64,000 bases of DNA, from NCBI GenBank assembly GCA_037444485.1, contig JBBIMI010000001.1:15526-79525 (forward strand), written 5' to 3'. The DNA comes from Candidatus Micrarchaeota archaeon. Its GTDB lineage: Archaea > Micrarchaeota > Micrarchaeia > Norongarragalinales > Norongarragalinaceae. The stretch's first letter is position 1. The number at the start of each line of letters is the position of its first letter. Below are positions 19,995 through 36,280 of the stretch, piece by piece. The notes under the pieces are model-generated. The model was not told the DNA's origin. It made no database searches and was given only the letters and a program-made list of their open reading frames with translations. The translations under genes and the position numbers were made by a program.

Positions 19995-20656
19995 TTTTCA
20001 CCAATTCCTTGAACACTAAACACCATGATGGTGGGCGGCATGATAACGAAAAACAAGAAAACAATTCAAGTATTTAAATATTGTTATGGTATATAAAAAA
20101 TTGTGGAAGGCTGGTTTTCGCGTTTTTTTACCCTCTAAGAGCGCGAGAGGTTACTCAAGCCGCCCAAAAACACGCTACAATACCGTAACGATGTAACGTA
20201 GCGTTTATGCGGATGCACTAACTCGTTATCGTTATAGTGTATTTATTTCCTGTAAAACGATTAGTGGAAGTTAATACTAATTCAATATAATTCCAGTAAT
20301 CGCACGATTTTTGTTTTCCTGTTTTCGAAACAATCGAATTCAAAAGAATTCAAAACAATTCCAGAATTCTTGCAGGTGCGACTCCAAAAAATTGGTTTAG
20401 AGAAATGAATGCAATCGAATGCGCGCACGTGAACCGGCACAAGAATCAGCAGAACCAGCACGTGAACCAAATAACAACTGGCAGAAAAACAAGAGAGAAA
20501 ACACGAAAAAGAAAACACGAAAAAAGAAGAAATCGGAATCAAGAATTAAGAAAATTGAAGCCTAGCCCAAAACAAAAAACAAGAAAATAGAAAAACAAAA
20601 CAGAAAATAGAAAAACAAAAAACAAAAATTAGTTCATACCGCGATGAACTTATTCG

Positions 20657-20950
20657 TTACTCGATGTATTTTTGGTGTTTTAGCGAAAATAATCGCAATG
20701 GCTCGCTTTTTCGTGGTTTTATTTCAAGTAAAACGTTGGAAGTGCGCTTAGTTTTCGAAAAAGCAATTTTACGATTTTTTTTGAAGAAATCAAGAAGAAG
20801 ATGGAACGCTTCAGCGACGCTAGTCGCCTTTTCGTTATTCGCTTGAAGTTCGCCGGCCAAAGCATGGATTTTAGGAAAATCCTCTTCAAAAATTCGAATC
20901 AAACGTGTTTTTTTCTTTGCCTTTTGAGCCAATCCTCTTTTTTTCGCCAT
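20657..20950 (-). CDS. Small basic hypothetical protein, lone gene inside an AT-rich island.
   Basis: 97 aa with a K/R-rich N-terminus (MAKKRGLAQKAKKKTRL). Flanked by more than 600 bp of AT-rich non-coding DNA on each side. Confidence 0.4.
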   Translation of the reverse strand: MAKKRGLAQKAKKKTRLIRIFEEDFPKIHALAGELQANNEKATSVAEAFHLLLDFFKKNRKIAFSKTKRTSNVLLEIKPRKSEPLRLFSLKHQKYIE

Positions 20951-21662
20951 TCAAACCACCATTTATATATTTACAAGATTAACATTTTAAATAAAGTAGA
21001 TTTTGTTTATAAATTTATCTCTTATTAAGTGTTTTTTTATTTTATATTAATAAAATATAACTTTGTTGATGATGTAAATAAAATTTACAAAAATTAATGA
21101 ATAATGGGTTAGAGAGAGTTCTATTGCTTTTGTTGTGATCGTATGGTTTTGTGCGTGAGTAGTTTGCGTAGATTTTAAATTAAATAATTAAATTAAATAA
21201 TGTATTTTAGGGATTAAACTGCCTACTATGCAATTTTTCAAGTTGTTTTCCAAAAGTTTTTCAAAAAAATGCTTCGAATTGTGGCTATACCATAAATTAT
21301 GAATTTTAGAAAAAATTGTTGAAAAAATCGCTGATTTAAAAAATACGTAGCCGCATTCGTATTGCTGTGTTTGAAAACAAAAGTTTTATCCAACATTTTG
21401 CATTAAAAATAATTCGAATTGAGAAAACTGTGAGAAAACTAGCTAAACCCAGAAAATAAACCCAGAAAACTGCCTATTTTATTTTATTGTTATTTTGTTG
21501 TTTTTGTTGTTTTCGAGTTTAGGCAAAAGAATGCGTTCGAAATTCACTGAAATTAAATGAAAATAAATGAAAAATTAATGGAAGTTGGGTCGGCGAGCGT
21601 TTAAATGCAGTTCTGCACACTGTATTCCTCATGGTGTATTTTTCATGGAATTAGGTCTTTTC

Positions 21663-24428
21663 ATGGAATTAGGTCTGCGTCCAGAGGTAATGCGCCTCGT
21701 CAAAGCAAAAGGCTTCACCGAATGGACTGAAATTCAGGAAAAAGCGATTCCACTCGTGCTTGAAGGAAAAAATATTCTAGCAATAGCCCCAACTGGTTTT
21801 GGTAAAAGCGAAGTGGCTTTCTTAAGCATCTTGTCAAAAATCCTCGACGCACACGATGCAGGCGACAAACGCGGAATTAAAGCACTATACATTACTCCGT
21901 TGCGTGCTTTAAACCGGGATTTGATGGAACGCTTATTGTTTTGGACGCGCGTGCTCGGAATTTCGCTTGCTGTACGCCACGGCGACACTAGTGCGAGCGA
22001 GCGGGTAAAACAACGCGAGCAACCAGCAGAGCTTTTCATCACCACACCTGAAACTCTTCAATCAATGCTCGTAGCACCTAAACTCAAAGACGCGCTCTCC
22101 AACGTCAAGTTCGTAGTAATTGATGAAGTTCACGAACTCGTCGAAAGCAAGAGGGGTTTACAGCTCGAACTCGGACTTGAACGCTTGAGAGAAAAAGCAC
22201 CGAGTTTTCAGACGATTGGGTTAAGCGCGACTATAGGCGACGAAAAGGAAGCTGCGCGCTTCGTTGCACGCAACGCGATAGTCGTGAAATCTAGTGTTGA
22301 ACGCGGGTTGAAGGCAGGCGTCGAGTGCCCGGCGCAGCCGAAAACCGATGAGCTTGAAGAGTTGGGCGTAAGCAAGGAATCGCGGGCGAAACTCGAACGC
22401 GTTATGGATTTGATTGAAACACACTCGCGCACGCTATTGTTCGTAAATACGAGGTACGTCGCTGAATCACTTGGCAGCCTGTTGTTTGAAACGCGTTTGA
22501 AGGACGAGATTGCAGTCCACCACTCGTCGCTTTCGAGGGAAGCCAGGCTCGAGACGGAGAAAGAATTCAAGTCTTTCGGTGGAAAGCTGAAGACAATAAT
22601 ATGTACGAGCTCTCTCGAACTCGGCATCGATGTTGGAAGCATTGATTTAGTGATTCAATTCGTTTCCCCCAGGCAAGTGACGCGTTTTCTGCAACGCGTC
22701 GGGCGAAGCGGTCACAGCAAGCACTTGACACCCAAGGGTATTGTAATCGCTAACGACGCGCTCGACTGCTTCGAAAGCGCGGTCATCGTTTCCCGCGCGA
22801 AGAAAGGCTTGCTTGAACATCTTGAAATCCGTAAGAACGCGTTGGACGTCGTTGCACACCAGGCTGCTGGACTCGCGTTGGACTTCGAACAACTTACTGT
22901 CGATAAAGCTTTTTCGTTAATCAAACGCGCGCGTTCGTTCGAAACGCTTTCCATGCAGGAATTCATCGAAGTTTTAAAGCAGGCGAGCGACGCTGGAAAC
23001 ATTTCTTTCGACGGAACGCGTTTTTCAGCGAACAAGAAAACCAGGTTGTATTACTACGAAAACTTGTCGACGATCCGCGACGTGAGAAAGTACTTCGTGA
23101 AAGACGCGGACAAGCGTAAGAACGTCGGCGTTCTAGACGAAGACTTCGTTAACGAATACCTTTATCAGAATGCTACTTTCATCGCAAGCGGTAGAGCTTG
23201 GCGCGTACTAAGCATTTCAGACGATGAAGTAGTGGTTGAAGCAACTCGCGACTTTGGAGCCGCGATTCCGGATTGGGTTGGTGAAGAAATCCCGGTAACG
23301 CGCGAAGTCGCCGAACAAACAAGCGAACTCATCGCGGAACTAGGCAATGCGAAAGAAAGTGAAGAACTAGCGCAAGAACTTTCTTGTTCGCAAGACGCAT
23401 TGAAGAAAATGATTGAATTCGCGCGGGAACAAAAAAAATTCTTCGAATCAAAGGCCGGTGAGATAACAATTGAAACCAACAAAAACTTTGCAGTCGTGCA
23501 CTGTTTCGCTGGCACGAAAGCAAACGAAACTCTTTCCCGCGCGCTCGGCGCACTGCTTACCGCAAGCCTCGGCGCCAGCGTGCGAAGCAAAGCAAGCGCG
23601 TACGGCTTTCTCTTGGAATTCCCGAAAAACGTGGACGGTGAGAAACTCAAGCAAGCGCTGCAAGAATTGAGTGGACGCAGCCTGCGGGCTATTCTTGAAA
23701 ACGCGTTGCCGCACTCGACGCTCTTCCGCCACAAGTTCGTGGGCGTCGCGAAAGCGTTCGGAGTGCTGCGTAAGGACAGCGAGTTGGGCGGCTTCGGCGT
23801 GCGCCGGCTCGTTGAAGCGTTGTGGGGCACGCCGGTATTCAAGGAAGCGTTGGAAGAAACTTTCTTCGACAAACTAGACCTGCAGACAGCTGCCGAAGCT
23901 TTGGGACAAAAAATCTCGTTGATTCAAGGCCGTGGCGAGTGGTCGCCTCTTGCCAAGCAGTTCTTCAACTACGGTGCTTTCAGCGAATTGATGGTTCCAG
24001 CAGAGCCGAATTCTCAAGTAGTCCAAGCATTCAAGCAAGAACTCTTGGAAAAACGCGTCCGCTTGTTGTGCGCTTACTGCGGCAAGAAATTCGGGCGCAC
24101 GCTCAGCGACGACCGCGTGCTTGCGTGCCCGTACTGTAAATCAACGCAGTTGACTCTAGAGGAATACGGTGAAGTGCTCGAGAAGAAAAAAAGGAAACGA
24201 GAATTAAGCGAAGAAGAAAAACGCGGGTTGCGTGAAGCCAAACGCGTAGTTTCGCTAATCGCAGCGTACGGAAAACGCGCGTTGCTGGCGCTTGAAACGT
24301 TTGGCGTCGGACCCAAGAGCGCGTCGCGCGTTCTAGCGAGGCTTCATAAGACCGACGACGAGTTTTACGCGGACTTGCTGGAATCTCAAAAAAAGTTTAT
24401 TAAAACAAGGCGGTTCTGGCGGTTGTGA
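21663..24428 (+). CDS. lhr: Lhr-type superfamily-2 DEVH-box helicase with a C-terminal C4 zinc ribbon.
   Basis: Walker A APTGFGKS, DEVHEL, SATIGD, HHSSLSREARLETE..., QRVGRSGH. C-terminal CAYCGKK...CPYCKS. A tandem 18-bp duplication leaves the start ambiguous between ATG 21645 and 21663. Confidence 0.75.
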   Translation: MELGLRPEVMRLVKAKGFTEWTEIQEKAIPLVLEGKNILAIAPTGFGKSEVAFLSILSKILDAHDAGDKRGIKALYITPLRALNRDLMERLLFWTRVLGISLAVRHGDTSASERVKQREQPAELFITTPETLQSMLVAPKLKDALSNVKFVVIDEVHELVESKRGLQLELGLERLREKAPSFQTIGLSATIGDEKEAARFVARNAIVVKSSVERGLKAGVECPAQPKTDELEELGVSKESRAKLERVMDLIETHSRTLLFVNTRYVAESLGSLLFETRLKDEIAVHHSSLSREARLETEKEFKSFGGKLKTIICTSSLELGIDVGSIDLVIQFVSPRQVTRFLQRVGRSGHSKHLTPKGIVIANDALDCFESAVIVSRAKKGLLEHLEIRKNALDVVAHQAAGLALDFEQLTVDKAFSLIKRARSFETLSMQEFIEVLKQASDAGNISFDGTRFSANKKTRLYYYENLSTIRDVRKYFVKDADKRKNVGVLDEDFVNEYLYQNATFIASGRAWRVLSISDDEVVVEATRDFGAAIPDWVGEEIPVTREVAEQTSELIAELGNAKESEELAQELSCSQDALKKMIEFAREQKKFFESKAGEITIETNKNFAVVHCFAGTKANETLSRALGALLTASLGASVRSKASAYGFLLEFPKNVDGEKLKQALQELSGRSLRAILENALPHSTLFRHKFVGVAKAFGVLRKDSELGGFGVRRLVEALWGTPVFKEALEETFFDKLDLQTAAEALGQKISLIQGRGEWSPLAKQFFNYGAFSELMVPAEPNSQVVQAFKQELLEKRVRLLCAYCGKKFGRTLSDDRVLACPYCKSTQLTLEEYGEVLEKKKRKRELSEEEKRGLREAKRVVSLIAAYGKRALLALETFGVGPKSASRVLARLHKTDDEFYADLLESQKKFIKTRRFWRL

Positions 24429-24586: not shown

Positions 24587-25057
24587 TCAACCCACTACCC
24601 TCGGTTTTCTGGTGATTACTGTTTCATTCAACGCGTTCGGGTGCATCGCAAAATAATCAGCTGCTTCCTTGTTTAACGCGTCGTTCGGATTCGGTTTTTC
24701 GAGTAATTGCTTTAACGCTTTTACTAGGCTCACTAGCGTCGTGCCTTCACTCCACTCGTTTAAAAGCTGAATGCATACTTTTCCGTCTTCGCTGCGAATG
24801 TTCGGGTGAAAGATTGGAGTCAACCAAGTGACTTCGATTCCGCCAGCGTAAGGGTATTCGCGCTTCAAATCGATTTGAATAGAGTGCGACTCGCGTTTTT
24901 GTAGCGAGTCCCCGTTCTTAAACAAGCTGACGCCGCGCAAGCTTATTACGTAACTCGTCTTCGACTCGTTAACCTCAAAATTTTCTTTGCTGGCAACCAT
25001 TTGTTGAAACTCGCTTTCAAGCCTGCGTCTCCAAATCGCTTCAGGAAGCATTGGCAT
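24587..25057 (-). CDS. Ubiquitin-conjugating enzyme (E2, UBC fold)-like protein.
   Basis: FHPNIRSEDGKVCIQLLNEWSEGTTLVSLVKALKQLLEKPNPNDALNKEAADYF fits the E2 HPN motif, catalytic Cys and PNP..P.N.EAA signature. Confidence 0.75.
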   Translation of the reverse strand: MPMLPEAIWRRRLESEFQQMVASKENFEVNESKTSYVISLRGVSLFKNGDSLQKRESHSIQIDLKREYPYAGGIEVTWLTPIFHPNIRSEDGKVCIQLLNEWSEGTTLVSLVKALKQLLEKPNPNDALNKEAADYFAMHPNALNETVITRKPRVVG

Positions 25058-25095
25058 TACAGACTACCTCGAAAAAACAGTTGAATGATTTGACT

Positions 25096-25359
25096 TCAAC
25101 CGCCAGTCGGATCAGGCATCAACAGCAAACGACTCCCTTCCTTTAAACCAGCGTCTGCCACCGTAATTTCAGGATTCAAAACCTTATCATCAACAGTAGA
25201 TAAAACAAAACGGTCTTTTAATTGAAGGTTTTCAGCGAGCACTTCCAAAACAGAGCTGATTGTGAAGCCCGGCTCTACCGCAACAACTATTTCCTTCCCG
25301 CTCGTGGTATGCGTTACTGTAATGTTGAATTCTTTCGAAGGCGAACTTTCCGATTCCAT
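25096..25359 (-). CDS. Ubiquitin-like beta-grasp modifier ending in a free Gly-Gly.
   Basis: 87 aa. FNITVTHTTSGKEIVVAVEPGFTISSVLEVLAENLQL...LKEGSRLLLMPDPTGG* aligns in pattern with ubiquitin and terminates in GG-stop. Confidence 0.6.
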   Translation of the reverse strand: MESESSPSKEFNITVTHTTSGKEIVVAVEPGFTISSVLEVLAENLQLKDRFVLSTVDDKVLNPEITVADAGLKEGSRLLLMPDPTGG

Positions 25360-25459
25360 GCAAAAACCACCTCAATTAAAGCACGTTAGTTAAAGCAAAA
25401 GATATTTGAACACAATATAATAATAAGTGTTGCGGTGAACAAAAGAGGTTTTTAAACCC

Positions 25460-25936
25460 GTGAATGAAGAAAAGAAAAAACCAAAGACAATAAGTGAGAA
25501 AGACGCGGTTCAAGAAGCTGGCGTTAAAGAAACCGTTGAAGAAGAAAGCAAGGAAACCGCTGAATCTAAAAACGAAAACACTAAAGAGGCGGAAAAACAA
25601 CTAGTGGAAACAAGTGAAACGAGTAAAACAAGCGAAAAAGAAGAGAAGAAGCCTAGAGTGAAAGTCGTTGTAGAACCAGTTTTCGGCGAACGCGGAACAA
25701 AACCCGTCATAACCGTCACTAGCGAGAAACCGCGTTTAGTGCGTGAAGTAGAAGAACAAGCTGCTCGAGACGTTCTGCCAACACAATCTCCGCCGGGCAC
25801 GCCGTTAGAAGCGCGGAAACCCTTGACGCGTGAAGAAGTAGTTGAGAAAGCGAAACAGGTTTGGGAAGAGAACAAGCGGAAAAAAAGTGAAGGTAAGTTC
25901 TTCAACCGCTTAAAACGCGCGTTGAAACTCGGTTAA
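25460..25936 (+). CDS. Highly charged (E/K-rich), probably disordered protein upstream of the JAMM gene.
   Basis: 158-aa ORF. Low-complexity KETAESKNENTKEAEKQ is followed by a short conserved-looking PVFGERGTKPVITV segment. Confidence 0.35.
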   Translation: MNEEKKKPKTISEKDAVQEAGVKETVEEESKETAESKNENTKEAEKQLVETSETSKTSEKEEKKPRVKVVVEPVFGERGTKPVITVTSEKPRLVREVEEQAARDVLPTQSPPGTPLEARKPLTREEVVEKAKQVWEENKRKKSEGKFFNRLKRALKLG

Positions 25937-25955
25937 AGTTGTTTAAAGCGGTGAA

Positions 25956-26417
25956 TTGATGTTCGAGGTTTACGTTCACGAGAAAGTCTTAAAGAAAGCT
26001 GAAAAACACTGCGCACGCGAAGCAGAGAGAGGACTAGAAGCGATGGGTTTGCTTTTGGGAAACGCGTTCACGCACAAGGGCCGTGAGTACGTTGTAGTCG
26101 AAGACTATTCCACTGGCGAGAATGAAGCAACAAGCGTTTCGGTGCGCTTTACGAAGAAAGCGTTTTCTAAACTCGCGAAAGACTTCGAGGAAGGTGGACG
26201 CATAATCGTTGGTTGGAGCCACGCACACCCGTCTTACGGTTGCTTCCTCTCAGCAACAGACTTGAAGACTCAAAACAATTACTTTAACGAAGATTTCCAC
26301 GTCGCGCTCGTCATAGACCCAACGCACAAAACGTCGAACGGTTTTGAAAAAAAGTTTTTCAAACTCTGCGCTGAAGGCTACCGCGAAGCTTCCTACGCGG
26401 TAATCAAAGAAAAGTGA
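25956..26417 (+). CDS. JAMM/MPN+ metalloprotease (Rpn11-like isopeptidase).
   Basis: EAMGLLLG ... VGWSHAHPSYGCFLSATD gives the E-x(n)-H-x-H-x7-S-x2-D JAMM motif. Confidence 0.8.
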   Translation: MMFEVYVHEKVLKKAEKHCAREAERGLEAMGLLLGNAFTHKGREYVVVEDYSTGENEATSVSVRFTKKAFSKLAKDFEEGGRIIVGWSHAHPSYGCFLSATDLKTQNNYFNEDFHVALVIDPTHKTSNGFEKKFFKLCAEGYREASYAVIKEK

Positions 26418-27427
26418 AAAAAATGCTTGGACAAAGCGAGACGCAGGAAAAAAACGCGAACGCACCCGCTGCTGCTGGCGCGTCAGCCGCAACTCCAGCG
26501 GCGAAGACGACAGTAAAGACAATGGTGGAGACGCGCAGAAAGAAAGCAGTCGTAAAGAAAACCGCGATTAAGATAACTAAGTTTGATAAAGCGCTCGCGC
26601 AACAAATAATTTTAGGCGAAACTAACCTAAAGAAAATCCAGGAAAAAATGCGTGTCGACGAAAAACAATTTTTTGAACGCGTGAAGAAACTAGGCGACGC
26701 TGGTTACATTGTTATTAATGAATCAAGGGAAGCCTGGTTTGGAATAAAAGGCTTTGAAGCCTTCGCCAACCAATTCAAGAAACTTGCGTCTACGCCGACG
26801 CCGAAATCCCGCGCGCGACTGGAAGAAACGCCCTCCGCGGCGCAAGCACCGCAAGCGCAGCAGACGCCAGCGCAGCAAGCGCAGCAGACGCAACAAACGC
26901 AGTCTCCCTTCACACAGCCCACGGTTCCGCCTGCGTTAGACCCTAGGCAAACTTTTCTTGCTGAAGCGACTGCAAAAGAAAAAGATGAGGTCAACGTCGA
27001 CTTGAGCGAATTGCTTAAAAAAGGTGCTCCTAAACCAAGCGACTCGATTTTCGTAAAACGCCAAAACGAAAAATCTTCTAGAGTGCTCTCTCGCGCGTTT
27101 GAAACAATTAAAACCAAGGATCCTGCAAAAGTCTCGACTGCAGGAGAATTAATTGAAGCGATTAAGAAAAGTAAGCCGAGCAGAGAGGCGTTGATGGTTG
27201 ACGGCGGCGAGGCTTGCGAATTGTGTAAAGCAAATTTTAAACTCGCTGTTGCAGGAGACGGCAACCCAAAGTACGGCCACTGCTTCTGCGGAGCAGCCTA
27301 CCATAAAGACTGTTACGAGTCCCTCGCAGGCAACAGCGGAAAATGCGTGCGCTGCGGCAAGAAACTCAAACTCGAGTTAAGCAAACAAAGCGAAGAAGCG
27401 GTTAAAGAAATAAAGGAATTATTCTGA
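26414..27427 (+). CDS. C4HC3 RING-like (treble-clef) zinc-finger protein and candidate E3. It has an N-terminal alpha-helical domain and a Q/A/P-rich linker.
   Basis: C-terminal C-x2-C-x17-H-C-x-C-x4-H-x2-C-x10-C-x2-C (CELCKANF...GHCFCGAAYHKDCYESLAGNSGKCVRCGK). The start overlaps the JAMM stop (GTG 26414 or ATG 26423). Confidence 0.55.
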   Translation: MKKMLGQSETQEKNANAPAAAGASAATPAAKTTVKTMVETRRKKAVVKKTAIKITKFDKALAQQIILGETNLKKIQEKMRVDEKQFFERVKKLGDAGYIVINESREAWFGIKGFEAFANQFKKLASTPTPKSRARLEETPSAAQAPQAQQTPAQQAQQTQQTQSPFTQPTVPPALDPRQTFLAEATAKEKDEVNVDLSELLKKGAPKPSDSIFVKRQNEKSSRVLSRAFETIKTKDPAKVSTAGELIEAIKKSKPSREALMVDGGEACELCKANFKLAVAGDGNPKYGHCFCGAAYHKDCYESLAGNSGKCVRCGKKLKLELSKQSEEAVKEIKELF

Positions 27428-27465
27428 GAAAGCGTGAAGTACCCTAAAATACTGGGTTCCGACTT

Positions 27466-28227
27466 TCAATGCACTGGGCAACTAACGCGTTTCGGAACTT
27501 CAAACAACCGTGCAGTCGACTTCAAACCGTCCAGAAAGAGGAACTTGCCTGCAAGCGTTTTCTCGCCGAAAGAATCACTGTGCACGAGCTTCAAAAACTC
27601 GTTCACTTGAATTCCTGCAACAACGCTCGTCGTCGTCGGAAGCGCCGGATTCTTTGGGTTAATCCAATCAACTAACTCTCCCACACAATTGTACTTTTGC
27701 CACAAAAGCTTGTAATCGCTTTTACTCAACCCGCACTCGAGACACGAAGAAGGAGCGCGCACTACTTGCACTTTCCCGAAAAACCCGGTTGTTCCCCCGT
27801 CAATCAAAGGAATCTTGCTGTAACACTGGGCGTTCAAATGCAGTCTCGCACCCAAGTTGTCGAGACAACCGAAAGCGTAATCGAAATTTTCGTAAAAATC
27901 TTCAGGAAGTTCTTCAATCTTCTCAGTGAAAACGCGTACCTCGGCAGTCGGATTGATTCTTGCAGCTTCGCGTTTTACCACATCAACCTTCGGCAAGCCC
28001 ACGTCTCCCTCGCTAAAGAAAACACAGCGATTCAAGTTCGCTTTCACAATCGAATCGAAGTCTACAAGCGAAATGTTTTTTACGCCGAGTTGAAGCAAGA
28101 GCTTGACGACTTCATTTCCAAGCGCGCCAGCGCCGACTACAAGCACGCGCGCCTCCGCGACTTCAGTCTGCCTCCAACCCTTCACGCGCTTTTGCCTATC
28201 GTGAACGTCCTCATCAATCGCAACCAT
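27466..28227 (-). CDS. E1-like ubiquitin/Ubl-activating enzyme (ThiF/MoeB/UBA family) with a zinc site.
   Basis: VLVVGAGALGNEV Rossmann motif, GCLDNLGARLHLNAQC catalytic segment, CLECG...CPVH zinc ligands. Confidence 0.75.
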   Translation of the reverse strand: MVAIDEDVHDRQKRVKGWRQTEVAEARVLVVGAGALGNEVVKLLLQLGVKNISLVDFDSIVKANLNRCVFFSEGDVGLPKVDVVKREAARINPTAEVRVFTEKIEELPEDFYENFDYAFGCLDNLGARLHLNAQCYSKIPLIDGGTTGFFGKVQVVRAPSSCLECGLSKSDYKLLWQKYNCVGELVDWINPKNPALPTTTSVVAGIQVNEFLKLVHSDSFGEKTLAGKFLFLDGLKSTARLFEVPKRVSCPVH

Positions 28228-28278: not shown

Positions 28279-29070
28279 ATGCCTTTGATTCTCTACACTA
28301 CGGAAGACATTGCGGGAACGAACGCCGCGCGCATTCTGAAAGAAAATTATGGCTTTAAACAAACTGAAGACTTGCAGATTAAAGACAAGACCTTCAAAAC
28401 CTGGTATGACCATGAAATCCAACTGATCGAACTAAATACGCGCCTGGCGTTCGACAGCAACTGGCTCAATGATTACTTCGCGAGCGACTTGCTCGTGTTT
28501 GCTTCCCGCCACTGCAGTGAAACAAGTAAACCCTGCCTTACCACGCACACTACTGGCGATTGGGCCAGCGGCGAATTGAGTGCAACCAGCGCGTTCGCCG
28601 TAAAAACCGCTTTCTTGTTCTTCAAACAAAACCCGCTTGAAGGATTTAGCGTTTCACTGGAAGCAACCCACCACCAGCCTTGGAATTTAACCACCCCCTC
28701 ACTCTTCATTGAAGTTGGAAGCAGCGAAAACGAGTGGCGCGACGAAAGAGCTTGCGCGCTCTTAGCAGAATGCGTTATTGAAACAGCGAAAAACTATTCG
28801 AATGCGAGCGGAAAAAGCGCGTTAGGGTTCGGCGCCGGCCACTATGCGCCAACGTTCAACGAACTCGAAGCAAGCGATTACAGTTTTTCATTCATTGCTC
28901 CAAAACACTCACTCGACTTCGTAACAACTAATTTAATCAAGCAAGCAGTTGCAAAAACGCGTGAAGGCGTTGAAGTAGCAGCAATCGATTGGAAGGGCTG
29001 CAGCGGCGAGCAACGCAAGAAAGTGATTCAAGCTTGCGAAGAAATCAGCTTGCCTTGGGAGAAGGTTTAA
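28279..29070 (+). CDS. dtdA: Archaeal-type D-aminoacyl-tRNA deacylase (DtdA)-like protein.
   Basis: SRHCSE...TTHTTGDW...EATHHQP segments resemble the archaeal tRNA_deacylase family. This call is from memory and uncertain. Confidence 0.45.
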   Translation: MPLILYTTEDIAGTNAARILKENYGFKQTEDLQIKDKTFKTWYDHEIQLIELNTRLAFDSNWLNDYFASDLLVFASRHCSETSKPCLTTHTTGDWASGELSATSAFAVKTAFLFFKQNPLEGFSVSLEATHHQPWNLTTPSLFIEVGSSENEWRDERACALLAECVIETAKNYSNASGKSALGFGAGHYAPTFNELEASDYSFSFIAPKHSLDFVTTNLIKQAVAKTREGVEVAAIDWKGCSGEQRKKVIQACEEISLPWEKV

Positions 29071-29122: not shown

Positions 29123-29686
29123 ATGGACGAGTATAAAGACAAACACAAAGGCGCGCAGCGACTCTATGTTTGCGACGAGCGTGGAAACACTAGCGGCGAG
29201 ATCGTAGAACGATGGAAAGCCCACACTACGCCTGGAGTCAAACACTTGGCTTTCGGAATTCTTGTTTTAAACGAAAAAAACGAGATAGTCTTACACAAGC
29301 GGCCAGCGCGCAAAGTCGGCGGCGGGGTTCTGGACATTCCCGTCAGCCACATTCTTGAAGGCGAAACTAGAGAACAAGCCATGAACCGTTGCTTGAAAGA
29401 AGAATACGGCATAACCGCAAAACGCTTCGAGCATTACCCCGGCTTTTCGTATTATGAAGAGTATCCTGACGGAACTTGCGAAAACGAGTACTGCTTGATA
29501 AGCGTGATAAGACACGAAGGCAAGTTTAAACCCAACCCGGAGGAAGTTGAAGGCGAACTAAAAGTTTTTCCAGCAAGTAAAGTCGTCAAAGAAATAAGAA
29601 AACATCCGCGGAAATACTCTATTTGGTTTAGGAAAGCGATAGAATTGTTAGCCAACGACGAGCGCGGCAGAAAACATTTGGTTTAA
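29123..29686 (+). CDS. idi: Isopentenyl-diphosphate delta-isomerase type 1 (Nudix family).
   Basis: HLAFGILVLNEKNEIVLHKRPARK..G.LDIPVSHILEGETREQAMNRCLKEEYGI...GTCENEYCLISV parallels E. coli Idi (HLAFS.WLFN...GHP..GE..A..RR...ELG...ENEVCPVF). Confidence 0.6.
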   Translation: MDEYKDKHKGAQRLYVCDERGNTSGEIVERWKAHTTPGVKHLAFGILVLNEKNEIVLHKRPARKVGGGVLDIPVSHILEGETREQAMNRCLKEEYGITAKRFEHYPGFSYYEEYPDGTCENEYCLISVIRHEGKFKPNPEEVEGELKVFPASKVVKEIRKHPRKYSIWFRKAIELLANDERGRKHLV

Positions 29687-29718: not shown

Positions 29719-30966
29719 TTATCGATTGAAAATAATCTCCATGCTTTCCGGCTCCAAGCGCACGCCTTCATTACTCACACCCAAATTAAGGACTTCAATC
29801 TTTTTTTCCTTATAACCGCGCCAGAATTCGCGCACTTTTTCCGCAGACTCTTCGCTTAAGCATATCGCGGCTATCGAGTCGCCGCCGCCAGCGCCTGGAA
29901 GCTTGGCGACGAAAGCGCCGTGCTTAAGCGATTCGTTGACGAGTTTGCTTAGTGTCGGGGGCTCTATTGGGGCGCCGCTTTTTTCGCCTAGTTCGCGCGT
30001 TAATTCGCGCCCGCGTTCGAATTCTTGTTTGAAGCGCGTGAATAACTCGAGTTCGCTTGATGGTTTTTGTGGTTTCTGTGTGGTTTTCTTTGATTCGGCG
30101 AGCGTGAGGGTTTTGGCGTAAAGCGAAGGGTTTTGTTTCGCGAGCGCATTGATTTTTTCGAGTAAAGCTATTGCTTTCGCGTTTGCTTCGTTGAGTTCCC
30201 GCATTAAATTCGCGTACTCTTGCGGGTTTGTTGTTTTCCACGCGTTTATTTTTTTAACCATTTCGCTGGTTGAAGCGCTTTCGCCGGCAATGTTTCCGAC
30301 TACTGCGGTGAAGGAGGGCGGCATTGCGAGTGGTTTTGAAGAGTAATCCCAAGCGCTCTCTAGAGCTTCCAGAAAGTCTTTCTTCTTTAAGATGCTTGGG
30401 CTGTAACGCGAGTAAACGTGTCCGCCGTAAGTTGCGGCGGCAACGTCGAAACCGCTGCCTATCTTGCCTTGCGCCACGCAGTGAACCAACTGCGCTGTTT
30501 TGTGCAGTAATTCTTTTTCTTTTAACGCGTCGATTCCGTGAAGCGCGAGTACCGCGGCTGTCGAGGCTACTGTGACTGCTGCTGAAGCGCCGAGTCCGGC
30601 TTTAGTAGCGCCTAGTCCGAATGCTGGGTCGCTGAACGTGGTTAATTCTATTCCGTTGAAAGAAATGTTTTTGCGGATAAAGTAATTGAAGCAAGTTTCG
30701 ACGGCGCCCCGCATGAATTTTGTGGCTGAATCTTGTTCTGGGGTTAACGGGTTTTTGAAAACCAGTTTGTTTAACTCGAATGCTGCTTCAGCGAACGCGT
30801 TGAATTGCGGGGCGTTTAACACGACCTTGTTTTCGTCAAGCTTTCGCGCGCGCACGAAAACGCGTTTGTTTACTCCGGTAACGAAGGAAACATTTGGTTT
30901 TTCGAGAACCGAATACCCGCCAATCCAAAGTATTTTCCCGGGCGCTGACGCAATGCAAGAATTCAT
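29719..30966 (-). CDS. Phosphomevalonate kinase (GHMP kinase, ERG8-like).
   Basis: SAPGKILWIGGYSVLE N-terminal signature of PMK. GHMP motif GLGASAAVTVA. Confidence 0.7.
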   Translation of the reverse strand: MNSCIASAPGKILWIGGYSVLEKPNVSFVTGVNKRVFVRARKLDENKVVLNAPQFNAFAEAAFELNKLVFKNPLTPEQDSATKFMRGAVETCFNYFIRKNISFNGIELTTFSDPAFGLGATKAGLGASAAVTVASTAAVLALHGIDALKEKELLHKTAQLVHCVAQGKIGSGFDVAAATYGGHVYSRYSPSILKKKDFLEALESAWDYSSKPLAMPPSFTAVVGNIAGESASTSEMVKKINAWKTTNPQEYANLMRELNEANAKAIALLEKINALAKQNPSLYAKTLTLAESKKTTQKPQKPSSELELFTRFKQEFERGRELTRELGEKSGAPIEPPTLSKLVNESLKHGAFVAKLPGAGGGDSIAAICLSEESAEKVREFWRGYKEKKIEVLNLGVSNEGVRLEPESMEIIFNR

Positions 30967-30970
30967 TTCA

Positions 30971-31738
30971 CTACCTTCTCAAGACTTCCTTCAACACTTG
31001 TTTAGCGTTTTCAAGAATAAAATCAGCTTGTTTTGCGAGTTCTTCACGCTTGCTGTTTCCAGTTAAAACGCCTATTGTTTTCACTCCAGCTCGTTTTCCA
31101 GCAATTATTCCTGCAAGCGAATCCTCTACGAGAACAACTTCTTGAGGGAAAACGCCTAGTTTTTTTAACGCGTAGTTTATCATTGACGGGCTTGGTTTTT
31201 CCTTTAAACGTTTTTCCTTCAAACCAGCGTCTTCAGTAACCAGCAAATCAACTTTAAAACCGAATTTCTTAATTAACGATGAAGCAAACAGTTTGTTGGC
31301 GTTCGTGATTATCACGGTTTTAAAGCCTTTATTACGCAGTTGTTTCAACAAACTCGCGGAACCCTGAATTTTTTTCGCGAGGTTCAAGAGTCTTCCAGGA
31401 TTCCTGCGAATTCTAGAGTACTCGCGGACAGCGACTTCACTTTCAACAAGTTCAGCTTTAGAAAGATTGTTTACCGCCTTGCGTAGTTTTACGCGTGTCG
31501 CTTGAAGACGCGCTCCGCTTCCCGCTTTCTTAATGCCTAACTTGTTTAAAGCGATGAGCGCTTTAAAAAAATCTTGTTTTTTATGAAACTCTGGAAGAGA
31601 GCGAATCGCGTAAACGTCGCGCACTCGAAAACACGGTTTTACGCCGGCGTGCGCTAAGGCTTTCTCTACAACCTTTTCTTGAAACCTACCGTAATCCACT
31701 AGCACTCCTTCGAGGTCGAAAAAAACGGCGCGAATCAA
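30971..31738 (-). CDS. HAD-superfamily hydrolase.
   Basis: VFFDLEGVLVD motif I and ITNANK/GVKTIG..TGN later HAD motifs. Sits between the MDD and PMK genes on the same strand. Confidence 0.65.
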   Translation of the reverse strand: MIRAVFFDLEGVLVDYGRFQEKVVEKALAHAGVKPCFRVRDVYAIRSLPEFHKKQDFFKALIALNKLGIKKAGSGARLQATRVKLRKAVNNLSKAELVESEVAVREYSRIRRNPGRLLNLAKKIQGSASLLKQLRNKGFKTVIITNANKLFASSLIKKFGFKVDLLVTEDAGLKEKRLKEKPSPSMINYALKKLGVFPQEVVLVEDSLAGIIAGKRAGVKTIGVLTGNSKREELAKQADFILENAKQVLKEVLRR

Positions 31739-31754
31739 ACGCAGACACCAACCT

Positions 31755-32828
31755 TTATTTCACGATTATTCTGCCGCTTGCCTCATCATACCAGTGTTCG
31801 CGAATGTTGCCGCTTGAGTCAAGCAAGTGTTCGTTAACGTACTTCGGCCCAAAACCAACTTTGCAAACCAGTATTTTCTGAACGCCTTCAACTTCAGCCA
31901 AAACTTTTTTTACTTCATCAACGTGTTTTTCAACAGTAAAAACGTGAGCGTTGGGGCCAGCGTCGAAAGTGTAACCAGCCTTTATTTCGCCCGCAGCGTT
32001 GTTAAAGTCTATTATTGAAGCCATTATTTGTTTTGAAACGTCGTTCAAATACGTTATTGGCGGCCACGTGTCGAGCATTACCGCGTGCATGTTGCTTGAT
32101 TCACGCATAGTCGCTTCGAGAAGCGTCGGCAAGTCTTTGCGTAGAATCGCGTTGCGCACGGTTTCAAGAGTCTTCGGCAAGTCTCGAAGCCGCTTTTGAT
32201 AAAGACTGCTTGTCGCCACCGTCTGCTTCATTCCAGCGCGAGAAGAAATTTTTTTCTTTCCTTGCTCTACGATTGCAATCACGTTACGCAACTCCAGCCA
32301 ATGCGACGGCGGCGCGATTTGAATTGCTAACGAATCGCTGCCGTCGCTCTTGACTCCGCGTTTCCACTCGACGAAACCGCCGAGAACACTGCGGCAAGCG
32401 CTGCCTGAACCCAAGCGCGCGAGAATAGATAATTCGCTTGAAGACAAGTTGAGGCCGGCTGCTTTGGAAGCAGCGCAAGCAAGCGCAGCCAAGCCGGCAG
32501 CGCTTGACGCGAAGCCAGCCGCGGTCGGAAAACAATTGAGTGAAACTATTCTTGCTTTTGCGTTTATTCCGGCTTTTTCTCGAATGACGTTCAATTGTTG
32601 CATGCGTTCAGCTGTTTCCTTGTCGTTCAAGTCAAGCTTTCTTCCATTCAACCAAACTTCGTCTTCCGCGAATTTTTCTGAAAACATGACGGTCGTACGC
32701 GTTTTCAGCGTTTCATCCATAGTCACAGAAATGCTTCCTTCCTGCGGCAGAATCAGTTTTTCGTCGCGTTTCCCCCAGTATTTTACTAACGCGATGTTTG
32801 CAGTTGCTTCAACAGTTGAAATACTCAT
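31755..32828 (-). CDS. mvd: Diphosphomevalonate decarboxylase.
   Basis: ANIALVKYWGKRDE signature. GHMP GFASSAAGLAALA. Confidence 0.8.
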   Translation of the reverse strand: MSISTVEATANIALVKYWGKRDEKLILPQEGSISVTMDETLKTRTTVMFSEKFAEDEVWLNGRKLDLNDKETAERMQQLNVIREKAGINAKARIVSLNCFPTAAGFASSAAGLAALACAASKAAGLNLSSSELSILARLGSGSACRSVLGGFVEWKRGVKSDGSDSLAIQIAPPSHWLELRNVIAIVEQGKKKISSRAGMKQTVATSSLYQKRLRDLPKTLETVRNAILRKDLPTLLEATMRESSNMHAVMLDTWPPITYLNDVSKQIMASIIDFNNAAGEIKAGYTFDAGPNAHVFTVEKHVDEVKKVLAEVEGVQKILVCKVGFGPKYVNEHLLDSSGNIREHWYDEASGRIIVK

Positions 32829-33726
32829 TTAATCCCCCCTCGCTGCGTTTCAAGAGTTCTTTAACGTAATTGATTGAGTCAAACAGTATTCTGCGCTCGC
32901 ACGCATTTAATCGTTTATCTTCAGCGAAAAGCTTTAAATCGCGTTCGAAAAAACGCTTGAATTTTTTAACTGCTTGTTTTTCTGGAATGCGTTTCTTTCC
33001 ACAATCGTAAAAAAAGTTTAACACTGCTAATGCGCCGACACGTTTCAACCAACTGCGGACAAGCGGGTTTTCAACCCCGGCCTCCCGCTGCAAAACACGC
33101 ACGTACTCGGAAACAAAGCTTAAAGAATCGCGCGCTTCAGGAAAAACTTGCAACAACAACCGGCCAGCAGAACTTTTCAAAAACGTTTTCGACTTACGCA
33201 AGCGTTTTTTGTAGTAAGAGATTATTGTTGCAGCGTTGAGAGGCGCGCCGCTCTCGCCGAGATACAAGTTTCTTCGAAAAACAATGTGTTCCGCAAACTG
33301 GTCTAGTTTGTCAGCTGCCTTCAATGCTCGCCCTACAAGGGAAGAAACACGTTTCACTCTCCGAAAACCATTCGGGGAAAGCCCAAACGAATGCGAAGCG
33401 ATAGCGTCACAAACCAATTTCACTTCTTCAACCGAAAAACCGTATTTCGGCAGTATGCTTGCAGCCGCTTGCGCGGAAGCGACTTCATGCTCGTCCGCTA
33501 AACCCATCTTTTTTAAAAGGTTTTCAGGAATCCGCAGCCAATCGTGAAACAAGCCGGCTATAAATCCAAGTTCCTGCTCACGCAGCGAACCACCGCCTTT
33601 TTTTACGAGCTCGCGAGTCAAAAGCGCTACGGGCAGGATGTGCTCGCGCCAAGAGTGAACCTTCGAATGCAATCCCTTCCGCGTTCTCTCCTCGTAATGC
33701 TTTTCAGCAAAACTAGTCAATTTCAT
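32809..33726 (-). CDS. HD-domain-like hypothetical protein.
   Basis: HSWREHILPVALLTREL ... GLFHDWLRIPE ... D. 305-aa ORF. The 3' end overlaps the mvd start by about 20 nt. Confidence 0.4.
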   Translation of the reverse strand: MKLTSFAEKHYEERTRKGLHSKVHSWREHILPVALLTRELVKKGGGSLREQELGFIAGLFHDWLRIPENLLKKMGLADEHEVASAQAAASILPKYGFSVEEVKLVCDAIASHSFGLSPNGFRRVKRVSSLVGRALKAADKLDQFAEHIVFRRNLYLGESGAPLNAATIISYYKKRLRKSKTFLKSSAGRLLLQVFPEARDSLSFVSEYVRVLQREAGVENPLVRSWLKRVGALAVLNFFYDCGKKRIPEKQAVKKFKRFFERDLKLFAEDKRLNACERRILFDSINYVKELLKRSEGGLNEYFNC

Positions 33727-33789
33727 TCTTGGAATACCGTTTTAGATTACTTTTAGATTACTGCGTTTACTGCGAATATCGCCGTATTT

Positions 33790-34935
33790 CTATAGGCGGT
33801 TCACTATTTTCTCGAACTCTTCGCGGGCTTTACGCTTTGATTCAGCTTCAATTTCAGAAACCCACTTGCCCGCGTATTCGCCTGAAGGCTTGGCGTAAAC
33901 GTCAGGGTGCGCGTAATGCAAGACGAGTTGAGCTGCTTGATTCGCTTTTTCCTTGCTTATTGAAGAAATCATTTTTTTAGAATCTTTAGGAATGTTTTCC
34001 TTAATTTTTTCAGAAAACTCTTCCAATCCAGGGTAGCCGTGATTCAACCCAAATTCTAGGAGTTCGTCCTCTGATTCGAAGTTGAAGTGTTTTATCAAGC
34101 TGTAGTAAACGTCTTCCTCCATTTTTCGCATTCTGTTAACTTCACTCACCAATTCTGGCGGGTAGTCTGAAGCAGTTTTCTTTGCTCTAATCCTCAGCAG
34201 CGACTCCAGCAGGAAAGCGAGTTTTTTAGTATCAGCGACAGTGAATTTTCTTTCCTCTCGCATACCCAAAAGTTTTTCGACGAAAGGCTTCATTTCTAGA
34301 TCGGTATCGTGTCTTTTTCCAGCTACGAATTCCGCTCGTCTTTTCACTACTGTAGCGCCGAGTCCTTCAGGCCCCTTGTCACCCCAAGTCAAGCCAAGCA
34401 ATACTATTTTCTCTAACAAGGGCTTGTTCTCGTCCTCTAATTTTTCTCTTATTTTTTCTAACGACAACTCGTTGTCTTGAATGGCTTTCGTAATTGCATT
34501 GAATTCAGAATCGGTTAAGAACGTCAACCCAGTTTCATCCTCCTTGATTTTTCCTTCACGAATTTGCTTCAACCACGCGCTCCTGCGCTTTTCAAGCAGT
34601 CTTACAGTCTTGAAACCGTCAGACTGACTTAATGCAGACAATCCGGTTTTTCCAGTTTCTCCCGCTCGCCTTATTAAATCGTGAACAATCGCGGCAATTC
34701 CAGCCAAGTTCGCTAAAGCCTTTACGGAATCAGAATTCAAGCGTTGCTTGCGCGCGTTTTCTTCAGCGACCCGCATTGCTTCTAAAGCAGCTGGATAAAC
34801 GTGGTCCCGCGCGTGAGCGGGCTCTCGCCCGCCGCTCTTTTCAAGAGTATCGTAGGCTTTGTTGAAGTACGAAAAAACTTTTTTTAAAGCCTTGGTTGTC
34901 CGTTTTCTCGCTTCACTCGGGTTTTCAAACACCAT
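33790..34935 (-). CDS. Hypothetical protein with a possible HD-like metal site.
   Basis: 381-aa ORF. AHARDHVYPAALEAM...AIVHDLIRR. Confidence 0.4.
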   Translation of the reverse strand: MVFENPSEARKRTTKALKKVFSYFNKAYDTLEKSGGREPAHARDHVYPAALEAMRVAEENARKQRLNSDSVKALANLAGIAAIVHDLIRRAGETGKTGLSALSQSDGFKTVRLLEKRRSAWLKQIREGKIKEDETGLTFLTDSEFNAITKAIQDNELSLEKIREKLEDENKPLLEKIVLLGLTWGDKGPEGLGATVVKRRAEFVAGKRHDTDLEMKPFVEKLLGMREERKFTVADTKKLAFLLESLLRIRAKKTASDYPPELVSEVNRMRKMEEDVYYSLIKHFNFESEDELLEFGLNHGYPGLEEFSEKIKENIPKDSKKMISSISKEKANQAAQLVLHYAHPDVYAKPSGEYAGKWVSEIEAESKRKAREEFEKIVNRL

Positions 34936-35149
34936 GAATTAAATTTGAGTAAACTGATTTTATAAACGTTTACGCAATAAACGTTTGCGTATTGGCTCGC
35001 ATACAGATTATTGTTTTAAACAATTTTTTCAAGAAACAGGAAACAATTTTTTTCAACAATTTTTTTTCAATAAATATTTTTTCAACAAACAAAGAACAAT
35101 TATTTTTAAAACAAGAATAATTATTTTCAACAAGTAGTGGGAAAAACGA

Positions 35150-36232
35150 ATGGCGAACAATTTCGTAAAAATAATTGCGAGCGCGCCGAACAAAATTCAT
35201 GTTGCTGGCGAGCACAGCGTCGTTTACGGTGGAATAGCTTTAATCGCTCCAGTTGAAGTGGATGAAAAACGCAACGTTGTGGAATTAATCGCTGAACCCG
35301 GCCAGCCTCAGCTAGAGTTTATAGGAAAAGGTTACGGAAAAACCGGGAGGGCAGTACTGCATGCTGACGGGACGATGAACGGGGACAACGAATGGAAGCC
35401 GATGCTTGAAGTAGCGCAACACGTTTTAGAAGACTGCGAAAAAAACTTGAAAGACTTGAATACTAGTATAACCGCTGAACGGTTTTTCAGTGGTGCGCCG
35501 AAAGGAACAGGCAATTCAGCTTCAATTCCAGCAGCATTCGCTTCCGCGTTATACGCGTTTTTGGGAAAAAAACCAAGCAAGCAAGAACTTTACGATGCGG
35601 CTTTCATTGCGGACAACGCGTGGCATGGCGGAAAGTCAAGCGGTGGAGACGTGCAAGCAGTAATTTCGAACCATCCACAAAAATTCTGGAGAGAATTCAC
35701 TCGAAAAGGCGTAAAACCACGTTACCAAGACTTTAGTGGAACGCTTCCGAAAAACACTGTTTTAGTGTTAATAGATTCTTTCAGGGGTGTTGGAGAGAAA
35801 TCCACTACGGCGCTCCAAATCGAGAAATTCGCTGCAGCTAACGGAATAACTAGAAAACCTTTCGAATTAACTGAACAGGAAAGAAAAAAAATATGTAAGC
35901 CTTACGATGAAGTCATCGAAAAAATAGAAAGCGAAATGCGTTTTGACGGAAACCCTGAAAAACTCGGGGCATACTTCAACGAAAACCACGAGTTACTGAA
36001 AAAATCAAATGTTTCAAGTCCAGACATTGAAGAAGCTATTTCAGTAAGCAAGCGAAACGGCGCTCTAGGAGCGAAACTAATCGGCGCCGGAGGCGTTGGG
36101 GGGGCAGTCATAGCCCTCTGCATGCGAGAAAAAACGCGTTTAATAACGAATGCGCTTGCGGAAAAAAAATTTAATAGTTGGACGGTCAAATTCGCTGAAA
36201 AAGGAGCTTGCGTGGATTCGATGCAAAAATGA
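35150..36232 (+). CDS. mvk: Mevalonate kinase.
   Basis: SAPNKIHVAGEHSVVYGG N-terminal GHMP signature. GTGNSASIPAAFASALY. C-terminal GAKLIGAGGVGGAVIAL. Confidence 0.8.
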   Translation: MANNFVKIIASAPNKIHVAGEHSVVYGGIALIAPVEVDEKRNVVELIAEPGQPQLEFIGKGYGKTGRAVLHADGTMNGDNEWKPMLEVAQHVLEDCEKNLKDLNTSITAERFFSGAPKGTGNSASIPAAFASALYAFLGKKPSKQELYDAAFIADNAWHGGKSSGGDVQAVISNHPQKFWREFTRKGVKPRYQDFSGTLPKNTVLVLIDSFRGVGEKSTTALQIEKFAAANGITRKPFELTEQERKKICKPYDEVIEKIESEMRFDGNPEKLGAYFNENHELLKKSNVSSPDIEEAISVSKRNGALGAKLIGAGGVGGAVIALCMREKTRLITNALAEKKFNSWTVKFAEKGACVDSMQK

Positions 36233-36280
36233 TATTTTGGATGGAGTCAAGTGATGGGCTCGTATTAAAATAATAGTAAT

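Follow-up and report, generated by a model that had tools for sequence, protein, structure and literature searches.

Six neighbouring genes occupy positions 24,587 to 28,227 of a 64,000-nucleotide stretch of DNA from a Candidatus Micrarchaeota archaeon, which we call the window throughout. The original prediction for this locus, made by reading the sequence, proposed a complete eukaryote-like toolkit for the conjugation and removal of ubiquitin, and an open reading frame (ORF) scan of the window recovered the six ORFs where they had been placed and on the same strands. A 114-kb public NCBI contig carries gene calls identical to five of the six translations; the metalloprotease ORF, in the version that starts at TTG, is the one without such a counterpart. 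From the analyses presented here we consider, with a probability of about three in four, that the cluster is a chromosomal, vertically inherited system of ubiquitin-type protein tagging, as predicted for this member of the Micrarchaeota (DPANN). Its features are listed below, using E1, E2 and E3 for the activating enzyme, the conjugating enzyme and the ligase, and Ubl for the ubiquitin-like modifier.

24587..25057, minus strand: homolog of ubiquitin-conjugating enzyme E2, 156 amino acids (aa), with UQ_con domain, HPN motif at residues 84-86 and predicted catalytic Cys95
25096..25359, minus strand: Ubl modifier, 87 aa, with a beta-grasp model and the C-terminal end PDPTGG
25360..25459, no strand: divergent intergenic region, 100 bp, AT-rich, separating the Ubl-E2 unit from the unit of the next three genes
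25460..25936, plus strand: lysine- and glutamate-rich (K/E-rich) low-complexity protein, predicted to be intrinsically disordered, 158 aa, whose C-terminal module is conserved
25959..26417, plus strand: JAMM/MPN+ metalloprotease, 152 aa from its ATG; the mechanical ORF begins at TTG 25956
26414..27427, plus strand: candidate E3, 337 aa, with a winged helix (residues ~50-126, nucleotides 26561-26791) and a C4HC3 finger (residues 265-320, nucleotides 27206-27373)
27466..28227, minus strand: minimal E1 (ThiF/UBA adenylation domain), 253 aa, convergent with the finger gene

The cluster and its four enzymatic components

The E2 gene lies downstream of the Ubl gene in the direction of transcription, with a gap of 38 bp, and the GTG start of the finger gene overlaps the JAMM stop in the tetranucleotide GTGA. 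From the spacing, this overlap and the strands, we therefore predict three transcription units, namely Ubl-E2, the divergent K/E-rich-JAMM-finger unit and the convergent E1, with bidirectional promoters presumed in the 25360..25459 region. The true start of the JAMM gene is probably the ATG at 25959, which lies five bases after a GGTGA.

The E2 ORF matched Pfam UQ_con with an E-value of 1.3e-19 (70.6 bits, where the cutoff is 27), and all 237 of its sequence matches in the PDB were eukaryotic E2s, the best being yeast Ubc1 (7.7e-12). H84-P85-N86, C95, W102 and P122-N123-P124 do not vary among 28 homologs, and C95 aligns both to C85 of UBE2D2 (35% identity, 75 residues) and to the catalytic cysteine of Ubc1. 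The N-terminal helix (LPExIWRRRLESE) and the C-terminal KPRVV tail are also conserved. Identity to the Caldiarchaeum E2 was 31% over 148 residues, an approximate value obtained with a query that was machine-read from the supplement of PMC5654768. The assignment of a UBC-fold E2 with an intact active site is solid on these comparisons, and the protein is predicted to form a thioester.

The Ubl was recognised more readily from its structure model and its conservation than from Pfam, where it passed the Rad60-SLD cutoff narrowly (24.3 bits against 23.8) and fell below that of ubiquitin itself (PF00240; 17.1 bits against 25.4). An alignment-based AlphaFold2 (AF2) model, with a predicted local distance difference test (pLDDT) value of 82.9, has the beta-beta-alpha-beta-beta topology. 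With this model Foldseek found 725 PDB matches at E<=1e-3, and the top ones include NEDD8, SUMO, ISG15, ubiquitin and the Caldiarchaeum ubiquitin, at template modelling (TM) scores of 0.75-0.88 and with 28-31% identity to ubiquitin and NEDD8. K22 of the Ubl aligns to K11 of ubiquitin. The C-terminal PDPTGG is invariant in 43 homologs, and in the window the stop codon follows it directly, so that the modifier is encoded in its mature form. Judged from this model, the Ubl is predicted with solid support to be a ubiquitin-type beta-grasp modifier with an exposed Gly-Gly. Median identity across species is 72% for the Ubl, 59% for the E1, 53% for the E2, 47% for the JAMM and 32% for the finger protein; by this measure no gene of the cluster is better conserved than that of the Ubl, which parallels the position of ubiquitin in eukaryotes.

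Most homologs of the Ubl also stop at the two glycines, and several are extended by 1-70 residues. These extensions imply a proteolytic maturation in the species concerned, and maturation of this kind has been shown for the pro-ubiquitin of Caldiarchaeum (PMC5654768). The longer extensions, of 20-70 residues beyond the invariant GG, were seen in homologs P0302 (151 aa), P0319, P0321, P0349 and P0353, and from its length that of P0302 could hold a fused domain or a partner protein.

The E1 scored 174.5 bits against Pfam ThiF (cutoff 28.1), and its PDB matches were led by the active adenylation domain of eukaryotic UBA1 (6.4e-29), SAE2 and UBA3, with MoeB (4.5e-19) and ThiF (2.4e-17) after them. 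It carries the GxGxxG motif at residues 32-37 and NLNR at 64-67. Among 34 orthologs there is little or no variation at C162/C165, C181 and C250/H253, and none at C181; C162, C165, C250 and H253 form a predicted Cys3His zinc site, and we infer that Cys181, in a short crossover loop, is the candidate catalytic cysteine. The alignment of UBA1 to this E1 passes from residue ~564 straight to ~850 over a 37-residue loop of the latter, leaving UBA1 residues ~565-849 with no counterpart, and hence the E1 has no separate Cys domain. It has no ubiquitin-fold domain (UFD) either, ending at residue 253 directly after a zinc ligand. Compared with the Caldiarchaeum E1 (CSub1476; the comparison is approximate, the sequence being machine-read), it lacks a crossover insertion of ~60 residues and the ubiquitin-like domain at the C terminus. 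This small size is general, as orthologs across the phylum are mostly 244-304 aa long, the outliers being one 99-aa fragment and one 356-aa ORF.

An E1 with the size and architecture of MoeB and ThiF, including a CxxC zinc site, raises the question of whether the E1 and the Ubl are primarily a sulfur-carrier pair of the MoaD/ThiS/SAMP/Urm1 kind, working in tRNA thiolation or cofactor synthesis, with conjugation secondary or absent. Archaeal SAMP/UbaA systems do perform both conjugation and sulfur transfer (PMC5654768), and some Ubl homologs are named 'molybdopterin converting factor small subunit' by a JGI source. However, the fold of the Ubl matches ubiquitin, NEDD8 and SUMO and not ThiS or MoaD (E 0.15 against the ThiS profile), and the E1 scored far under the cutoffs of the NCBIfam equivalogs MoeB, ThiF and UbaA (87 bits against 450 for UbaA). 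Membership in the SAMP/UbaA systems was not found, with SAMP1 at E 0.12, far under its cutoff, and an E2 present in the cluster. There is no rhodanese domain, and the pair is syntenic with an E2 of intact active site and an Rpn11-like isopeptidase, neither of which has a role in sulfur transfer. We therefore regard a sulfur-carrier function as very improbable, and as the main role of the pair it was rejected on the NCBIfam cutoffs and the Ubl fold.

The JAMM protein scored 47.6 bits against Pfam JAB (cutoff 22.5). Its best PDB match was the Rpn11-like protein of Caldiarchaeum (6fjv, 1.1e-12), followed by CSN5 and Rpn11, and E28, H89, H91, S99 and D102 (ORF numbering) are invariant in 38 orthologs. 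Its assignment as an Rpn11/CSN5-like protease, with the catalytic motif predicted to be intact, is solid.

These results agree with the original prediction of a UBC-fold E2 with HPN motif and catalytic cysteine (UQ_con above its cutoff, C95 at the canonical position), of an 87-aa beta-grasp Ubl ending in GG (AF2 model, Foldseek matches, invariant PDPTGG), of a JAMM/MPN+ isopeptidase (JAB score, intact E...HxH...S..D site) and of a ThiF/UBA E1 with a cysteine and zinc ligands, the catalytic role of C181 being a prediction still. Searches that could have gone the other way recovered the UBC, beta-grasp and E1 folds, aligned the E2 cysteine to the catalytic position and returned a beta-grasp model for the Ubl. 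Where the prediction overreached is in calling the toolkit eukaryote-like: it is not fully so, because the E1, at 253 aa, is minimal and has neither UFD nor Cys domain.

Conservation across genomes

Database searches found 122 homologs of the E2, and every named source is labelled Candidatus Micrarchaeota, Micrarchaeia or Norongarragalinales, the last being placed by the NCBI taxonomy in class Micrarchaeia of kingdom Nanobdellati (= DPANN). The lineage, which the original prediction did not name, is thus neither Aigarchaeota nor Asgard. Homologs of the Ubl and of the finger protein likewise came from Micrarchaeota among the named sources. Some of the Micrarchaeota database entries are already annotated automatically as 'ubiquitin-conjugating enzyme E2'. 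We also used the E2 alignment to scan a single genome from each GTDB species, and confirmed 244 loci. The 42 best loci are from Micrarchaeota; after them rank one Sigynarchaeum (Asgard), one member of the Bathyarchaeota, many Thermoplasmata/Methanomassiliicoccales and some bacteria of the Solirubrobacterales.

All five genes for the E1, finger protein, JAMM, Ubl and E2 are present in 32 of the 42 Micrarchaeota loci, and in 32 of these 32 their order and strands are those of the window (E1+, finger-, JAMM-, Ubl+, E2+); most of the 10 other loci are cut by contig ends. The finger gene never leaves the cluster in 37 loci. A cluster kept in the same order to this extent is far beyond chance. The layout, the large finger protein and the extra protein, which had been thought special to this copy, are accordingly the norm of the phylum and occur in dozens of public genomes.

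The extra protein is the K/E-rich one, for which no match was found in Pfam, NCBIfam or PADLOC. It had been described as acidic, and this holds for its N-terminal half only (isoelectric point, pI, 4.9); the C-terminal half has a pI of 10.1 and the whole protein, of mixed charge, a pI of 8.9. Its C-terminal module reads (E)QA[AS]RD[IV]xP ... KKxxGFFxK[LI]KxxLGF. By tblastn the protein was found at 7 loci only, and an ORF with its C-terminal motifs lies upstream of the JAMM gene in most Micrarchaeota loci. On these motifs we take it to be the predicted sixth conserved component.

Beyond the Micrarchaeota, the scan revealed two further kinds of operon. About 30 Thermoplasmata loci (among L045-L080) have a collinear E1-Ubl-E2-JAMM operon, for example L055:6900-9172 from a member of the Methanomassiliicoccaceae, with a 79-aa Ubl ending in IPDPEGG, an E2 with the PRVV tail and a short E1 ending in CPxH. 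In Solirubrobacteraceae (L065:4420-10152, and also L071, L076 and L078) the locus encodes an FHA protein, a Ubl ending in AGA, a 402-aa E1 and an E2, together with a JAMM ORF with an apparently transmembrane C-terminal stretch and a Prok-RING_1 C4HC3 protein with a hydrophobic stretch, which scored 28.4 bits against a cutoff of 29.1. The Bathyarchaeota locus (L044) is a solo E2 gene and was set aside as uninformative.

The winged-helix finger protein and the predicted pathway

The 337-aa protein has a basic N-terminal arm, a winged helix, a variable linker and a C-terminal C4HC3 finger followed by a helix. We found 113 homologs, all of the named ones in Micrarchaeota and none with a Pfam domain on record. 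The winged helix, which was not part of the original prediction, is modelled by AF2 with a pLDDT of 95-98, and Foldseek matched it to the winged helix-turn-helix (wHTH) domains of DtxR, MntR, MarR and AspA; with the full model the matches were to wHTH proteins only. The arm that precedes it has a pI of 10.6. The eight ligands of the finger (C268, C271, C290, C292, H297, C300, C311 and C314) are the same in all of 41 sequences, the pattern C-x2-C-x(10-25)-C-x-C-x4-H-x2-C-x(6-16)-C-x2-C fits 111 of the 113 homologs, and a hydrophobic residue between ligands 1 and 2, L270, is near-invariant.

In the linker we observed a helical motif, DLxELLKKGxP, at residues 196-206 (window 26999-27031), in which D196 and P206 hardly vary; the E2 or the Ubl could dock on this peptide.

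The finger's matches to RING families recur consistently but stay below threshold. Against Pfam the protein of the window gave faint matches only (Prok-RING_1 at E 0.37, PHD_2 at 0.52, zf-RING_2 at 0.98). When 40 members of the family were scanned one by one, sub-threshold matches appeared to Prok-RING_1 in 39 and to zf-RING_2 in 38, none above the cutoff, with best E-values of 1.8e-4 and 4.9e-5 respectively. A profile of the finger compared with the PDB had only RING E3s on top, gp78/AMFR first at 0.013 and then Pirh2, RNF24, Cwc24 and EL5, none of them significant. We infer from this pattern that the 337-aa protein is a probable E3.

Several points weigh against this reading, or against the cascade as a whole. 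With no RING Pfam family reaching its cutoff, the RING assignment is statistically insecure, consistent but unproven. In hhalign the finger came into register with that of the bacterial operon RING at a probability of 1.2%. A search of 1.84 billion representatives returned 72 members of the finger family at E<=1e-10 and a next match at 2.4e-5, with no other family. Over residues 265-320 the AF2 model is of low confidence (pLDDT 47-72), its helix beginning at H297/C300 as the central helix of a RING does. The Thermoplasmata operons have no C4HC3 finger within 5 kb, and therefore an E3 may be dispensable. With its winged helix the 337-aa protein could be a transcription factor instead. Finally, the E1 is without the UFD that recruits the E2 in canonical systems, and the transfer from E1 to E2 would therefore have to use some other interface.

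A rival reading is a cascade that is independent of an E3 and uses the E1 and E2 only, the 337-aa protein being a DNA-binding regulator of the transcription of this cluster or of other genes. The confident wHTH, similar to the DNA binders DtxR, MarR and AspA, and the basic arm are as such a regulator would have them, a homolog is labelled an Lrp-family regulator in one source, the finger is never above a RING threshold, and the homologous Thermoplasmata operons do without it nearby. However, all eight ligands of a cross-brace are there in the finger, where a ribbon would have four; RING E3s and Prok-RING_1 are consistently the best of its sub-threshold matches, and the near-invariant L270 sits where RINGs contact E2s. 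The gene is also translationally coupled to that of the JAMM and stays in the cluster in all of the 37 loci mentioned above, and in the bacterial operon, which is homologous, the equivalent place is taken by a Prok-RING_1 protein. A regulator is the less likely reading, though a plausible one, and we continue with the 337-aa protein as a candidate E3. Of the C4HC3 RING-like finger that the original prediction described, the ligand pattern stands, and no RING family is matched above its cutoff; its statement that every step of ubiquitin conjugation and removal is covered hangs on the E3 step, where the finger remains under the RING thresholds.

A related architecture is known from Nse1 of Smc5/6, whose winged helices precede a RING-like domain of the C4HC3 kind (Pfam zf-RING-like, PF08746). 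Nse1 resembles our protein in combining a winged helix with a C-terminal C4HC3 RING variant, and 24 of the 40 members scanned match zf-RING-like weakly (best E 0.0023). In contrast to Nse1, the finger protein has one winged-helix domain and a long disordered linker, and no significant sequence relationship was found between them. We mention Nse1 as a lead only. The winged-helix and C4HC3 family appears to be previously undescribed, and may be one of DNA-directed ligases.

In the pathway that we propose, the 87-aa Ubl would be made with a free Gly-Gly end. The minimal E1, as a homodimer, would adenylate this end with ATP and then take the Ubl as a thioester on Cys181 of the crossover loop, which the Cys3His zinc site would hold in place. 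The Ubl would be handed on to Cys95 of the UBC-fold E2, and the E2~Ubl would be discharged onto target lysines, probably helped by the C4HC3 finger as a RING-type E3. The basic arm and winged helix of the 337-aa protein would serve in targeting, possibly to DNA or to DNA-bound proteins. The Rpn11/CSN5-like JAMM would take the tag off again, and would also mature the precursor in those relatives that have an extended Ubl. The K/E-rich protein may be the sixth conserved partner, either an adaptor or a substrate. A more specific form of this proposal is that the Micrarchaeota, within DPANN, have a vertically inherited E2/E3 ubiquitylation in which a winged-helix ligase is tethered to DNA or chromatin and tags the proteins bound there, with the minimal E1, lacking UFD and Cys domain, feeding a eukaryote-type E2 through an as yet undescribed interface. 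Perhaps this is so, but in so specific a form we consider it doubtful.

Genomic setting and comparison with known systems

In the window the cluster is flanked by a Lhr-type DNA helicase (21585-24428) and the archaeal D-aminoacyl-tRNA deacylase DTD2 (28279-29070), and tblastn found Lhr at 20 and DTD2 at 26 of the 42 Micrarchaeota loci, which may be due to a functional link or just to infrequent rearrangement of the genome. Base composition over the cluster shows no anomaly against the rest of the window, which is ordinary archaeal core chromosome with genes for fibrillarin, Trm5/TYW, Lhr helicase, DTD2, a mevalonate-pathway cluster, a class I tRNA synthetase, Nre, a beta-CASP nuclease and 5S rRNA.

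This setting bears on whether the cluster might be a horizontally acquired anti-virus defence module of the bacterial Bil or CBASS Cap2-Cap3 type. The component list of such modules (Ubl, E1, E2, JAB) is identical, PADLOC matched the JAMM weakly to JAB/BilC models and the E1 weakly to E1-E2/BilD models, and related E2s occur in Solirubrobacterales bacteria. However, the E2, the Ubl and the K/E-rich protein had no PADLOC match, and the E1 reached 49 bits with the defence models but 104 bits with UBA1. Throughout the phylum the cluster also keeps to one housekeeping location, with Lhr and DTD2 on either side, and shows no mobile-element genes and no compositional anomaly. A defence origin is extremely improbable on this evidence, and was rejected on the PADLOC results and the genomic context.

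Some other features of the window were observed along the way. A gene-poor, AT-rich stretch with A-rich tandem repeats lies at 19995-21585 (GC about 0.35, compared with about 0.47 elsewhere); it contains a single plausible small basic ORF (20657-20950, 97 aa), and could represent an origin, the remains of an element or extended intergenic DNA. At 16-6630 there are two adjacent, very large ORFs (1249 and 942 aa) whose sole matches are to Ig-like/CARDB/FixG_C-type domains. They may encode surface proteins, which in a DPANN archaeon might have a role in cell attachment. Mevalonate-pathway genes are concentrated at 29719-47395, with an MVD-like decarboxylase, HMG-CoA reductase and two GHMP kinases together with a thiolase and a condensing enzyme of the ACP_syn_III_C type, and a NUDIX protein adjoins the cluster at 29123-29686. 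A stand-alone 5S rRNA gene was found at 8490-8604 (79.3 bits), and no tRNA genes were found across the 64 kb.

The best-known archaeal counterpart is the system of Caldiarchaeum subterraneum (Aigarchaeota), with ubiquitin, E1, E2, a small RING finger and Rpn11, which was reportedly described by Nunoura in 2011. It has since been reconstituted (PMC5654768), and the structure of its Rpn11 has been solved (PMC6043591). Both systems have the same five functional classes, and the Caldiarchaeum Rpn11 is the best solved relative of our JAMM. The two E2s share an N-terminal LPExxWxRRL helix, the Ubl model superposes on the Caldiarchaeum ubiquitin, and C-terminal propeptides occur both in the Caldiarchaeum pro-ubiquitin and in some Micrarchaeota Ubls. 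The differences begin with the E1, which in Caldiarchaeum has a crossover insertion of ~60 aa and, at its C terminus, a ubiquitin-like domain, whereas the Micrarchaeota E1 has neither. Caldiarchaeum also has a small RING finger where the Micrarchaeota have the 337-aa winged-helix C4HC3 protein, and one operon plus Rpn11 instead of three transcription units. The conserved K/E-rich protein is extra in the Micrarchaeota, and their host lineage is DPANN and not TACK.

The Asgard systems, which are often linked to ESCRT, have in common with the present cluster an E2 with HPN and cysteine, a ubiquitin-type Ubl and an E1, and the Sigynarchaeum E2, at 39% identity, is among its nearest relatives outside the Micrarchaeota. 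They differ in composition and synteny; here the E1 is minimal, and no ESCRT neighbours were present in the parts of the window examined. A UFD and a Cys domain belong to the E1s of eukaryotes, of Caldiarchaeum and of most Asgard-type systems, but not to that of the Micrarchaeota.

The Thermoplasmata operon clearly belongs to one family of systems with the present cluster, as seen in its short E1 of ~250 aa ending in CPxH, in its Ubl (IPDPEGG, compared with MPDPTGG here), in its E2 with WLTPIFHPN and a PRVV tail, and in its Rpn11-like JAMM. Unlike the present cluster it is a single collinear operon, with neither the K/E-rich protein nor a nearby C4HC3 finger. The bacterial Prok-RING_1 operons (Cluster III-type, PMC5654768; L065) encode an E1, E2 and JAMM that are 33-39% identical to those of the window, and their C4HC3 finger shares the core CG[AS]xxHxxC. 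They are set apart by the 402-aa E1, the Ubl ending in AGA, the FHA protein and the apparently transmembrane RING and JAMM, and the hhalign comparison between the two finger families was not significant.

A functional parallel for the E1 is found in UBA5-UFC1 of the UFM1 pathway, where a homodimeric, adenylation-only E1 has its cysteine in the crossover loop and no UFD, and UBA5 was among the PDB matches. By sequence, though, the Micrarchaeota E1 is closer to UBA1, SAE2 and UBA3 than to UBA5 (6e-29 versus 4e-11). UFC1 is not known to have the canonical HPN, which the Micrarchaeota E2 has. The cluster would thus seem to mix traits, with a short E1 like that of Cluster III, an E2, JAMM and Ubl akin to those of Caldiarchaeum and eukaryotes, and a novel large wHTH-finger protein.

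Micrarchaeota genomes are roughly 1 Mb in size, and that the system is kept in genomes so small suggests an important cellular role. With a 253-aa E1, a 156-aa E2 and an 87-aa Ubl it is very small itself, and offers a case in which to ask how an E1 with no UFD recognises a canonical E2. The statement of the original prediction that such cassettes are established in only a few archaeal lineages agrees with the literature searched, where eukaryote-like cassettes of ubiquitin, E1, E2, RING and Rpn11 are reported from Aigarchaeota and Asgard, and related operons occur sporadically in some bacteria (PMC5654768, PMC6043591, PMC4571572). Clusters I and II have an E1 with a C-terminal UBL domain and the bacterial-like Cluster III does not (PMC5654768). 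A ubiquitin system of Micrarchaeota, DPANN or Methanomassiliicoccales is not described in the literature searched, which did not include the figure of Cluster I-III species in PMC5654768. In the works found, eukaryotic ubiquitylation is traced to Aigarchaeota and Asgard, and other prokaryotic cases are treated as sporadic or bacterial-type. The Micrarchaeota cluster and the Thermoplasmata operon widen the archaeal range and provide new outgroups for phylogenies of the E1, E2 and Rpn11; if the system is as in the more specific proposal above, the two together would mean that E2-based tagging is old and widespread in Archaea and not an innovation of the TACK and Asgard lineages.

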